Shown here piece by piece: positions 17,995-53,637 of a stretch of 64,000 nucleotides of DNA. Within the stretch, counting starts at the first letter, position 1; each line of letters opens with the position of its first letter. Both the position numbers and the translations under genes were made by a program. The notes under the pieces were generated by a model that ran no database searches, was not told the origin of the DNA, and worked only from the letters and a program-made list of their open reading frames with translations. The stretch is from positions 28,872 through 92,871 of the forward strand of contig JBMFQE010000010.1 in assembly GCA_049968755.1 (NCBI GenBank), given 5' to 3'. The DNA is from Bacteroidales bacterium. GTDB taxonomy: Bacteria; Bacteroidota; Bacteroidia; Bacteroidales; DTGW01.

Positions 17995-18600
17995 ATGGAG
18001 CAAAGTAAGCAACTGTCTGCAGAAAGAGAGATCTGGAAGTCAATTCCGTATACCGATCACAAATACGAGATAAGCAACTTTGGACGGGTAAAAAGCTATT
18101 GCCAGAATCCCAAAAAAGGGAAAATACTCAAACCTTCAAAAATAGGTGGATTCTATGTGGTAAGCCTCAAGGTAAAAGGTAAATCACGACATTTTCTGGT
18201 ACACAAGCTTGTTGCAGAAGCCTTTGTTCCCAAAGAAAAGGAATCGGACGAAGCGGTAATTCACCTCGATTGGGACAAAACCAACAACTATTATAAAAAT
18301 TTGAAATGGGTAAGCAAAAACGAGTGCTATCAACGCATGCACAAAAAACTGCAGGAAGACCGAAAGAAAAAAGGCAAGGTGGTAACATATTCAAAACTCA
18401 AAGCCGAGGAAGTTTCATTAATTAAATCCATGCTTGCACGAGGGGTAAAACAAAAATTGATAGCTAAAATGTTCTGTGTAAGTGAAATGCAAATTACCCG
18501 AATCAAAAAGGGTGAAAACTGGAAAGAAATTCTCCCTCTCAGCCAAACAGAAACTCAAGCCATTGATAAAGTAGCTGAAAACTCAGAACCCTATCAATAA
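17995..18600 (+). CDS. NUMOD4 motif + degenerate HNH + C-terminal HTH protein
   Basis: EIWKSI...YEISNFGRVKS (NUMOD4), VHKLVAEAFV, HLDWDKTNNYYKNLKWV (HNH-like), QKLIAKMFCVSEMQITRIKKGENW (HTH). Confidence 0.85.
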   Translation: MEQSKQLSAEREIWKSIPYTDHKYEISNFGRVKSYCQNPKKGKILKPSKIGGFYVVSLKVKGKSRHFLVHKLVAEAFVPKEKESDEAVIHLDWDKTNNYYKNLKWVSKNECYQRMHKKLQEDRKKKGKVVTYSKLKAEEVSLIKSMLARGVKQKLIAKMFCVSEMQITRIKKGENWKEILPLSQTETQAIDKVAENSEPYQ

Positions 18601-26064: not shown

Positions 26065-26487
26065 TTATTTTGTATTGTTCTGAGATTTTTGAATACTTTT
26101 TAGCGACTTTGTTACCAATACAATCTCAAAAATGGTAAATACCAGATAATTAATTACATAAAGTATAAGAAAAATTTTCAAGTGAGTCTTGAAAAAGAAA
26201 AGACAGCATACCAACACCACCAGATATAGCAATAACTTTGTAATGGAAAGTATCATATAGCCATTTACAAATTTCGCAGGTCGTTCGATACCAAGCCTAA
26301 GGGTAAACGCATAAAAAACTGCGGATGTAAAATAGAAAAACATGGACAATCCTAAGCCTATTAAAAAGGATGTATTCAAAAACTGCCCAGGGCGGGTGAT
26401 CAAGAAAAACAATAGCATGGATAGGTTAAGCACAATGAACCATATCAATGCCTTTCTTAAAAAGAAGATTAATGAAGATTTCATCAT
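26065..26487 (-). CDS. Four-TM membrane protein, AtpI-like
   Basis: Hydrophobic, FVNGYM...KL motif, directly upstream of atpB. Confidence 0.65.
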   Translation of the reverse strand: MMKSSLIFFLRKALIWFIVLNLSMLLFFLITRPGQFLNTSFLIGLGLSMFFYFTSAVFYAFTLRLGIERPAKFVNGYMILSITKLLLYLVVLVCCLFFFKTHLKIFLILYVINYLVFTIFEIVLVTKSLKSIQKSQNNTK

Positions 26488-26585
26488 AATAAAATTAATT
26501 TTTATAGGTATGATGGAACACCCCTGTTCGCAATTTTATCACTATTGTGTTTGCGTTCGCAGGAACATGGGTGTTTCATCATAAT
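26479..26585. repeat. Dispersed ~105-bp imperfect-palindrome element, copy 1
   Basis: Arms 26509-26529 and 26563-26583 are complementary at 19/21 positions; homologous to 53091-53193. Confidence 0.85.
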
Positions 26586-26597
26586 TTCCGGAATGTT

Positions 26598-26807
26598 TCA
26601 TTTTTTTCTGAGGAACTCACGAATGGCCAGATAAAATGCCAGAGCTGAAAAGACAATGGTAAATACAATTAAAAAAATAGGCTTCGTACGAAGCCAATCG
26701 TCCACTTTATAACCAGCAAACACTCCTACAATTATTGTAAATATCAATTGCAGAAAAACTGAAGAATAACGTACATAATTACGTATCCATTCCTGCGGGT
26801 CGTTCAT
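26598..26807 (-). CDS. AtpZ/AtpI family (ATPase gene 1) protein
   Basis: Two TMs with GYKVDDWL motif; position ahead of the atp genes. Confidence 0.85.
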   Translation of the reverse strand: MNDPQEWIRNYVRYSSVFLQLIFTIIVGVFAGYKVDDWLRTKPIFLIVFTIVFSALAFYLAIREFLRKK

Positions 26808-50957: not shown

Positions 50958-51435
50958 ATCTCAACTGCCCCTCATTTAAAAAAATTCGATTTGACCGAAC
51001 ACTATAACGATCAAAAGTTAAAGTAAAACAAAGAAAACTCACACATGCACTCAACTGAGGACTTTCTCCATCAGCATTAAAAAATTCACTATGCGGAAAA
51101 CCGAACATTAAACCATCAAAAATATTACACACCAAACTTAAATTGCGCACCGTGAAAAAATCCTTAAAATTTTGATACATAACAGCATCATATATATACA
51201 CTATCTGCAATGAATCATTAGTTAAATAACCCTCAAAAACCTTATATCCCATTGTACCATATACGAGTACTCTTAACCTTGAAGAGTCACCCGAAATCAA
51301 CATATTTGCACAATCCCCTCCCTGAAAACACACATGATAACGAACTACATTCTCTCGAGGTTGGGTAACCAAAAAACGCGTACACCCTAAAATAGAAATC
51401 AAAACTATAACGAAAAAAATTACCTTTCGTTGCAT
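50923..51435 (-). CDS. Hypothetical lipoprotein (DUF4292-like by position, highly diverged)
   Basis: ILGC lipobox-like; LTNDSLQIV; lies between the TPR and EnvC genes. Confidence 0.5.
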   Translation of the reverse strand: MQRKVIFFVIVLISILGCTRFLVTQPRENVVRYHVCFQGGDCANMLISGDSSRLRVLVYGTMGYKVFEGYLTNDSLQIVYIYDAVMYQNFKDFFTVRNLSLVCNIFDGLMFGFPHSEFFNADGESPQLSACVSFLCFTLTFDRYSVRSNRIFLNEGQLRYGTMVVSIQRY

Positions 51436-53099
51436 TCTATCGTATTTATAAAAAATGCATCATACTCCTTACTATTGGGAAAAAGCTTATTTAACAATTT
51501 TATAGACTTAGCTCGGTATCCTGCACAATATAAAATAGCAGCATAATGCTCCAACAACTCACGGCGATCACCCCCCTCAACATAACGCAAAGCCCTTCGC
51601 ATATAATGCAGAGCCTCATTGTATGATTTTAATCGATACAAAACCCAAGCATATGTATCCAGAAATGCAGCGTTTCGTGGATAGCGCAATACCGCAGCAC
51701 GCGCTAATATCTCAGCCTTATTTAAATTCTTTCCCGATTGTGCCAAATAATATGCGTAATTATTCATAATCGTTTCATCTGCAAAATCTTCCGTAATCGC
51801 CTTTTCATAATAAAAAAAAGCACTATCACGCATTCCCTTATTGTAATATAAATCGGCCAAAATATTCACGGCATTCGCCTTATATCCGAAATTTCCCTGG
51901 ACATTTAAAGATAGTATCAAAAAATTTCTTGACCTGTTGTATTCTTTTCGATTGTAAGTCAAAACTCCTGCGACATAAAACCCGAACGGCGTGGCAAATA
52001 CTGCTGGACGGGCATCCAACAAAGAATCAAGAATAGCAAATTTCCCCATTGCATACAGCGGCAAAATATAACGGCTCCATGCCGAAATATTATCGGGATA
52101 CAAACTAACATAACGCTTACCCAAAATTTCAAGCTTTTCCATCTGGTTTAGTTGCAAATAAAAACTAAATGCATCGTCAAACACAGATGGAGGAAATGTA
52201 TCACGATTCAAGAAACTTATCAATCGATCATCAAGATATTTCAGAAATATTTCAGATTTTGAATGCAACATCATATTAAGCCATTCAATTCTTTTTGGCA
52301 AATCATCTTTAGTTGTAAAAAAACGATCGATATAATCATAAACAAACTTCCGATCACGAGCAGTTTTTGAAAAAAAACGACTGTACTGATAAACAGCTTC
52401 AAAAGAAAAAGAATCATTTCTAAAATATTGCATAAAATATTTGCGAGCCTTACGGAACTTTCCGTTCTCTGCAAACAAAACTGATCGATCAAGTACAAAC
52501 CTAAGATGCAAACCAAACATATTAAAACAAGTATCCAAAAATCTGTTTAAGGTAGAAAACGATTCATGATACATGTTTTTTCGCAACAAAAAATATAAAT
52601 GATAAAGCTCAGGATCCGCATAATCTTCCCTCATCAATACTACCAAATTTGCAACCTTTTCCTTGAAAACAGGATAATTAATCGCTATTCGCAAAAAATT
52701 AATTCTATCGTCATAGGTAGCTGAGGAAATATTGATGATTTTACTTAACAATCCAACAGCAGCAAGAGAATCTCCAGACAGCAGCAACAAATCAGCATAA
52801 TTTTTAATGTACCAATAATTCGTCGTATCGAGCCTGTATGCGCGCGCAGCATAATTTACAGCAACTTCATTAGAACCGGCATCGCGATATATTTGACTTA
52901 AATCATACAAACAAGCAGCACAGGTAGAATCAACCCGCAAAATAGAAGTCAAAATATAGGCAGCAGCGGTTAGATTCCCCGATTCACGATTACGAATAGA
53001 CTCAATATAAGAATACTCAATATCATAATTACGCTGTTCACCAAAAGTTGTTGAAGCAACAGGAATAAAAAATAGGAAATAAAACAATCTTTTCACCAT
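51420..53099 (-). CDS. Tetratricopeptide repeat protein
   Basis: Signal peptide; NNYAYYLA, FLDTYAWVLY, LLEHYA C-terminal TPR patterns. Confidence 0.85.
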   Translation of the reverse strand: MVKRLFYFLFFIPVASTTFGEQRNYDIEYSYIESIRNRESGNLTAAAYILTSILRVDSTCAACLYDLSQIYRDAGSNEVAVNYAARAYRLDTTNYWYIKNYADLLLLSGDSLAAVGLLSKIINISSATYDDRINFLRIAINYPVFKEKVANLVVLMREDYADPELYHLYFLLRKNMYHESFSTLNRFLDTCFNMFGLHLRFVLDRSVLFAENGKFRKARKYFMQYFRNDSFSFEAVYQYSRFFSKTARDRKFVYDYIDRFFTTKDDLPKRIEWLNMMLHSKSEIFLKYLDDRLISFLNRDTFPPSVFDDAFSFYLQLNQMEKLEILGKRYVSLYPDNISAWSRYILPLYAMGKFAILDSLLDARPAVFATPFGFYVAGVLTYNRKEYNRSRNFLILSLNVQGNFGYKANAVNILADLYYNKGMRDSAFFYYEKAITEDFADETIMNNYAYYLAQSGKNLNKAEILARAAVLRYPRNAAFLDTYAWVLYRLKSYNEALHYMRRALRYVEGGDRRELLEHYAAILYCAGYRAKSIKLLNKLFPNSKEYDAFFINTIECNER

Positions 53100-53193
53100 T
53101 ATAAAATCAATTTTTAAAGGTTTGATGGAACACCCATGTTAGCAATTTTATCACTTTTGTATGCGCTTGTAGGAAAATGGATATTTCATAATA
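53091..53193. repeat. Dispersed ~105-bp element, copy 2 (more decayed palindrome)
   Basis: Manual alignment with 26479-26583: 87 of 105 columns identical (16 substitutions, one 2-nt gap). Confidence 0.85.
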
Positions 53194-53637
53194 CTATTTT
53201 CCAGTATGTCCAAAACCTCCAGCACCTCGATCGGTAGGATTTAAAGCATCTACAGGCAACCATTCGACCACAGCATGACGAGCAATAACCATTTGACAAA
53301 TACGCTCACCGTCGCGCAACAAGTACGGTTCGCTTGACAAATTAACCAATATTACTTTTACTTCTCCACGATAATCAGCATCTATAGTTCCGGGAGAATT
53401 TAATATAGTTAGTCCATGCTTGATTGCCAAACCGCTTCGAGGTCGAATTTGTGCCTCATATCCTTCAGGCAATTCAATATATAATCCTGTAGGCACAATA
53501 ACCCGCTCTAACGGCCGGATTTCTATTGGCGAGTCGATATTTGCGCATATATCCAACCCCGCACTCAAATCAGTTTGATAGGTTGGCAACGCATGACGCG
53601 ATTTATTTACAACTTTAACCTTAATTTTATCGACCAT
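53194..53637 (-). CDS. dut: dUTP diphosphatase
   Basis: [33 protein letters not shown]. Confidence 0.97.

Follow-up and report, generated by a model that had tools for sequence, protein, structure and literature searches.

Two stretches of the 64,000-nucleotide window analysed here (the whole stretch of Bacteroidales DNA) lie in unrelated operons and resemble each other closely, which raises the question of whether they are copies of a mobile unit that supplies translation starts or a portable cis-regulatory RNA. The original prediction held both readings open. BLASTN reproduced exactly its hand-aligned similarity (82.857% over 105 columns, i.e. 87/105, E 4e-24). Both copies are on the minus strand, co-oriented with their own operons, and each ends on the start of the downstream gene, so the predicted orientation and overlap were borne out at both loci. 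The features are as follows.

26479..26579, minus strand: copy 1, whole unit with both ATGAAA hexamers, 101 bp
26574..26579, minus strand: copy 1, upstream ATGAAA, where the likely original start of the gene stood; it opens a 25-codon uORF (26579-26502)
26566..26579, minus strand: copy 1, left arm, the 5' strand of helix A
26510..26526, minus strand: copy 1, central arm, the partner of the left arm in helix A or, by way of TTCCAT and a triplet that varies, of the right end in helix B
26488..26509, minus strand: copy 1, A/T-rich loop of helix B, the replacement translation-initiation region
26479..26487, minus strand: copy 1, right end ATG-ATG-AAA, the start of the atpI-like gene
26065..26487, minus strand: downstream host gene of copy 1, atpI-like by position, without a Pfam match
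26598..26807, minus strand: upstream host gene of copy 1, atpZ-like (PF09527)
53091..53189, minus strand: copy 2, whole unit, 99 bp, the lowest score of all full-length copies
53122..53138, minus strand: copy 2, central arm
51420..53099, minus strand: TPR-protein gene downstream of copy 2, with its start codon inside the right end of the unit
53194..53637, minus strand: dut gene upstream of copy 2, with its stop codon 4 nt ahead of the unit, as in the empty site

Copy 1 folds better than its shuffles (z -4.8 sense, -6.2 antisense) into the 21-bp stem with 2 mismatches that had been described, but the outer 4 bp of this stem are flanking DNA, outside the element. The fold of copy 2 is no better than shuffles (z 0.39). 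Rfam gave only a tRNA in the window, and matches in the element region were far below the gathering score. As predicted, no transposase family was found by the Pfam scan of 51 of the 118 listed ORFs of the window. A free-standing NUMOD4-domain ORF at 17995-18600 on the plus strand is possibly a homing-endonuclease relic.

Copies and placement in the genome

The element had been described as found twice, which holds for the window but not for the 3.0-Mb genome (G000), where the profile search detected 103 matches, the two window copies included. Of these, 101 are near full length, one is truncated at a contig end and one is divergent. A structure-based pattern, which gave 0 matches in the locally shuffled genome, detected one extra divergent unit. 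Each unit spans ATGAAA to ATGAAA. The copies differ from the consensus by 3.9 changes on average, and 22 of the 101 are within one change of it. Variant hexamers were counted at the two unit ends in 11 vs 12 of 168, a near-equality that points to neither hexamer as the one from the target, and ATGAAA is present at both ends in ~90% of units.

In 60 of the 103 copies an ORF of 100 aa or more begins at the 3' ATG, compared to 23% of 3952 ATGAAA sites; the other 43 copies head no ORF of this length. No gene body among the 2329 genes of a simple gene caller is split by a copy, three copies overlap the last 38 nt of the upstream ORF, and a few read in frame into the adjoining gene. The ATGAAA sites without a unit comprise 388 at starts, 558 in intergenic regions and 2820 in coding sequence. 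Occupancy is higher at starts than at intergenic sites (60/448 vs 41/599, odds ratio 2.1, p 5e-4), and the odds ratio drops to 1.5 (p 0.13) within sites having T at -1, the base preferred by the element in this genome. The target of the element is thus the hexamer ATGAAA and not, as had been proposed, the translation start as such: ~40% of copies occupy intergenic ATGAAA hexamers that start no gene, and the start-codon bias, modest once insertions into coding sequence are discounted, reflects mostly hexamer specificity and selection. With the hexamer as the target and its coding sites unoccupied, the absence of copies from coding sequence is best read as selection. No leading/lagging-strand bias was seen (49 vs 49 copies), a weak test in this genome, where the skew is weak and genes are also without bias.

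Filled and empty orthologous sites

In two congeners (G001 and G002) the empty orthologous sites carry a single ATGAAA, and the filled sites carry two. The atp and dut loci, where empty sites had been suggested as a check, are both empty in G002: its dut/TPR site has the dut stop codon, 4 nt and a single ATGAAA, the exact spacing seen before the left end of copy 2, and its atpZ/atpI gap is likewise empty, though diverged. G002 has one copy, and G001, searched alone, has 104 copies, of other subfamilies. The orthologue comparison for G001, covering 1.38 Mb of ~2.5 Mb, gave 19 filled starts with an alignable orthologue, of which 11 are empty in G001 and 8 filled (5 by regex, 3 by eye), the units at the 8 co-filled starts belonging to other subfamilies. 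One non-start site is empty in G001 with near-identical flanks.

This co-occupancy (5/19 vs 10/104 by the same regex, p 0.056) counts against simple random hopping and pure mobility. In G001 many units lie on top of older, decayed ones, and arrays in tandem are frequent (12/50), so repeated re-invasion of old sites may account for the co-occupancy. Tandem units of different subfamilies have one ATGAAA in common. G001 arrays contain up to 4 units (L334, L352, L366, L375); in 5 mixed arrays with the CTTCA/CTCCA/CCCCA type the abundant subfamily is upstream and this rarer type adjoins the gene. Single units of other subfamilies in G000 (L011:519-652 in G000:C27, and another in G000:C3) represent earlier waves.

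Displaced and replaced translation starts

Upstream of the left ATG, A is present at -13/-12/-11 in 57/73/68% of the 60 start-class copies, compared to 66/69/60% at ordinary starts and 41/41/49% in the 39 non-start copies analysed, with 4 of the 103 copies dropped for unclear ends. Insertion occurred at the original start, leaving the native initiation signal of the gene upstream. The 3' part of the unit is A/T-rich, with A at -12 in 54/56 and at -11 in 51/56 family members; in the portions of PMC6847099 used here, A-12 and A-13 are described as stimulating initiation in Flavobacterium johnsoniae. A-3 is present in just 15/56 members, because this position pairs with the central arm.

The last 9 nt have 5/531 changes in start copies and 24/378 in other copies (p 8e-6), a comparison that is partly circular, the start class being assigned by ORF. 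These positions are conserved only in start copies, where the right end, after insertion at a start codon, would come under host selection. The old start opens a 25-codon uORF in 69 of the 103 copies, with its stop 14 nt ahead of the new start. Across the family the uORF varies from 4 to 47 codons and no peptide is conserved, so a conserved leader peptide was rejected. The final AUG is predicted to be paired in the linear RNA (family mean 0.93), which makes an effect on expression plausible as a by-product.

Structure and covariation

The structural alignment contained 56 members chosen from 105 distinct units, with near-duplicates and long insertions omitted. All 56 have a single hairpin and a single central arm, which pairs with the left end (helix A) or the right end (helix B); the linear form allows one helix at a time. 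The second, mutually exclusive helix, in which the arm is paired with the downstream start codon, had been overlooked in the original prediction. Both helices covary across the 56 members, the outcome of the covariation check that had been proposed. Helix A is 91.7% paired, with 25 double changes vs 8.7 after shuffling, and helix B is 98% paired, with 67 vs 18.4; none of 500 shuffles reached either value, in a test that ignores relatedness among members. Slid controls gave at most 52% pairing. The arm triplet pairs perfectly in 47/56 members with ten triplet types, under a search pattern that fixed the arm core and left triplet pairing free.

In a circle closed over one hexamer, helices A and B would become one continuous helix, and this junction helix is found in 51-54 of the 56 circular folds, partly by construction. 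The position opposite the fourth hexamer base stays mismatched and is A, C or G across families; a G-T wobble on the antisense strand was rejected as its explanation, given these bases. Tandem G-A mismatches occur in helix A of 9/56 members and suit the sense (mRNA) strand. The flank does not covary with the arm triplet, the G flanks of G001 being decayed older units, and the target hexamer never varies in the guide-target covariation comparison. The inner loop ranges from 3 nt to >100 nt and takes in other small palindromes. Other palindromic repeats are nested in loops and central arms of units in G007 and G021 (L014, L015, L018, L021, L026, L027, L030).

Over the 101 G000 copies the stem changes comprise 25 G-U pairs, 23 A-C, 37 other mismatches, 4 new Watson-Crick pairs and 6 gaps. 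The changes towards G-U-compatible pairs noted earlier in copy 2 are thus real but uninformative, with no G-U excess over the copies. Within G000 substitutions have accumulated equally fast in stems and loop (~3 per position over 101 copies), as expected if the structure matters to moving rather than resident copies.

Family distribution

BLAST relatives were detected in 9 of 40 related genomes and covariance-model matches in 19 of the 40, with 1 to 86 matches each. In the phylum-wide sample the family is present in at least 9 of 150 genomes, a lower bound with 27 candidates scored per genome. The pattern scan gave 26 genome matches, in records titled Bacteroidales, Rikenellaceae or Bacteroidota, 117 metagenome matches, and one viral match that lacks the architecture of the unit. 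No autonomous (long) version was detected among the 26 genome and 117 metagenome matches (80 with full flanks); the matches without a left end are contig-end cuts, decay or chance.

The host genes are unrelated to one another. Several genomes (L075, L113, L118, L128, L198) retain a unit at the start of one and the same 113-aa gene, which is possibly KaiB-like, and similar retention was seen at other genes, possibly reflecting domestication. In G007 (L002:1-1602, G007:C14) a Cas12a-type gene (Pfam REC1, cas_Cpf1_2nd) has a unit on its start codon.

Search for a partner enzyme

Among the genomes examined, the distribution of the element is matched by no Y1, IS110, reverse-transcriptase or extra recombinase gene. 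Homologues of the one Y1 gene in G000 were detected in 27 of 41 genomes, many of them non-carriers, and not in the carriers G021, G013, G009 and G004 at E 1e-10. The Y1 elements of 6 carriers have ends unrelated to the unit, and no TnpA element with the ends of the unit was found in 30 Y1 loci of these 6 genomes or in G000; the drafts may lack one. In the carriers G006 and G008 (L044, L045, L050, L051) a TnpA-only IS200-like element ends in TTCAT(T) and has hairpins unrelated to the unit. A Y1 transposase-like gene of G000 (L032:1480-1914, G000:C1) is embedded upstream of a RecQ-like gene, has close homologues in G001, G002, G003, G007 and G008, and looks domesticated.

IS110 was rejected as the partner, having no match in G000 and being present in 3/8 high-copy and 6/21 zero-copy genomes, without association with copy number. 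RAYT was also rejected: the Y1/RAYT loci examined contain no unit, and RAYT-like ORFs have their own palindrome. Such ORFs are present on G000 contigs C42, C22 and C9, and the C42 one contains a GTAG-footed palindrome with ~10 genomic copies. The transposase with matching ends, of IS or RAYT type, that had been suggested was not found in the loci examined. The search for RVT_1 in G000 (98.9% complete) gave 0 candidates, and two tyrosine recombinases of XerC/D size were detected. G000 also has a further repeat of ~14 copies, a CRISPR repeat of 159 copies, and a small contig, C41, with a transposase fragment, presumably mariner-like, which is possibly contamination.

Proposed mechanism and alternatives

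We favour, with moderate confidence, the interpretation that the element is a gene-less repeat, likely mobile as an excised single-stranded circle and moved by an enzyme encoded elsewhere. The part of the original prediction that concerned a mobile unit supplying translation starts is retained on the evidence of copy number, empty sites and the rebuilt start. In the putative circle the two ends would be joined across one hexamer and the arm paired with the junction, forming a continuous helix of ~17 bp with one kept mismatch. As the arm is complementary to the joined ends, a single-stranded circular intermediate is the simplest reading. The TTCCAT of the arm would choose the target hexamer by pairing, in the manner of the guides at IS200/IS605 ends. 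Read on the antisense strand, the series cleavage site-spacer-guide-hairpin-cleavage site would correspond to the known layout of the IS200/IS605 left and right ends with one common hairpin, and an HUH (Y1) enzyme is, by this analogy, our tentative best guess for the mobiliser. Against the analogy, it is drawn on the antisense strand, while the G-A tandems of helix A suit the sense strand; the even strand distribution of the copies and the failure to find a tracking enzyme among the genomes examined also count against it. Selection would purge insertions into coding sequence and tolerate those at start codons, where the unit supplies a replacement start.

The portable cis-regulatory RNA, the other half of the original prediction, is rated less likely than the mobile unit, and we consider it improbable. 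In this alternative helix B hides the mRNA start codon until it is freed by helix A or by a ribosome on the uORF, the covariation comes from selection on the switch, and the leader was spread by duplication or gene conversion. The predicted pairing of the final AUG and the preference of the G-A tandems for the mRNA strand agree with such a switch, as do sites that congeners have in common or that several genomes retain at one gene, but the 43 copies that head no ORF of at least 100 aa, the unrelated host genes, the uORF of variable length without a conserved peptide, and stems that change at the loop rate within a genome without G-U excess all argue against it. We also doubt that the folded circle is the substrate of a site-specific recombinase (XerC/D, an integron-like tyrosine recombinase or IS110-type) with ATGAAA as the exchange core. 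In favour of this are the 6-bp shared core, the AAC/GTT triplets at the helix foot, the cassette-like tandem arrays and the two tyrosine recombinases of G000, and a host enzyme of this kind would account for the failure to find a partner. Against it, the attC consensus is not matched, other families have AAT/ATT in place of AAC/GTT, a G is not required in the target, and IS110 is distributed over high- and zero-copy genomes as given above.

The same anatomy could belong to an RNA traveller, a rod-like circular RNA copied back to DNA by a trans-acting reverse transcriptase, which we regard as quite improbable: the unit is co-transcribed with host genes, it is predicted to fold stably as an RNA circle (mean -15 to -20 kcal/mol) and the purine mismatches favour the sense strand, but G000 gave no RVT_1 candidate, no Rfam ribozyme matched, and the conserved bases are too few for a catalytic core. 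A classical MITE moved by a DDE transposase that duplicates 6 bp of target is largely refuted and has very little probability left. Its 6-bp direct repeat and high copy number are present, but the inverted repeat is internal, stopping ~28 nt short of the right end, the ends without the hexamers are not inverted repeats, the right triplet covaries with the interior, and the duplicated hexamer is nearly fixed and orientation-specific.

Insertion of this kind would suit a phylum without Shine-Dalgarno signals as a safe-landing strategy, in which the element inserts at the commonest start hexamer and rebuilds the start. At least 60 of the ~2300 genes here, including ATP-synthase and fatty-acid genes, would have leaders of foreign origin that are predicted to hide the AUG, and we suggest caution with such 'conserved leaders' in Bacteroidota, which are not operon-specific regulators. 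The anatomy predicts a precise junction and offers a handle on the mobiliser. A further-reaching proposal, which we consider rather unlikely, is that the unit stands for a new class of mobile DNA, minimal and self-guided: a dumbbell circle of 60-160 nt, moved by a host or unrecognised enzyme, in which one arm reads both the circle's junction and the target, and which would have colonised the commonest start hexamer across Bacteroidota and would rewire the translation of dozens of genes per genome.

Comparison with known systems

The name 'MITE/REP-like' given in the original prediction does not fit a unit that lacks terminal inverted repeats, a GTAG foot and a RAYT gene at its side. It shares with MITEs the target-site direct repeat, while its inverted repeat is internal and its ends vary independently. 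Like REP/BIME with RAYT, it is a small hairpin repeat with tandem mosaics; unlike them, it is ~100 bp, AT-rich and located at gene starts, whereas REP/BIME sits after genes and, in the review sections used here, has a GTAG foot on a short GC-rich hairpin (PMC3184786).

The similarity to IS200/IS605 and PATE (TnpA Y1 HUH) includes a fixed short target at both boundaries, its internal complement and a subterminal hairpin. PATE have two end hairpins, each with its own guide, whereas the unit has one hairpin and an arm serving both ends; its pairing runs 3 nt into the element and covaries, and it carries a translation-initiation region. TTCAT is a documented ISGst5 target, and guide pairing with covariation has a precedent in IS200/IS605, according to the portions of PMC10055086 used.

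Comparison to integron cassettes gave no agreement, since the unit cores are ATGAAAY/RTTNCAT, there is no cargo and G000 has only two tyrosine recombinases. The attC consensus is RYYYAAC/GTTRRRY. The likeness to IS110/IS900 also failed, with no co-occurring DEDD transposase and no long target consensus. Doran, in 1997, reportedly described the targeting of translation initiation signals by IS900. This element is reported to use the host signal to drive its own ORF on insertion at such signals (PMC8141618, in the part seen); unlike the ATGAAA unit, it is an autonomous DEDD-transposase element, and IS110 does not track with the ATGAAA-unit family.

The MIRU repeats, compared by description only, are alike in being 40-100 bp with dozens of copies, filled and empty sites with direct repeats, small ORFs and ends overlapping genes; they differ by tetranucleotide repeats, GC-rich stems and the Mycobacterium host, and the review sections used mention no two-way central arm (PMC3184786). 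Neisseria REP2 and Borrelia IR-A and IR-B likewise have no terminal inverted repeats, have internal stem-loops and give an initiation signal with ATG to unrelated genes. REP2, also compared by description only, has a promoter and an SD-type site, and the same sections mention neither a hexamer at both ends nor a start-codon-pairing arm (PMC3184786). We found no description of the ATGAAA unit in the open-access literature. Taken together, these comparisons place it among the non-autonomous bacterial repeats as a real and apparently undescribed family, and the mechanism that we infer for it may explain the spread of MIRU- and REP2-like repeats, which the review left open in the sections used (PMC3184786).
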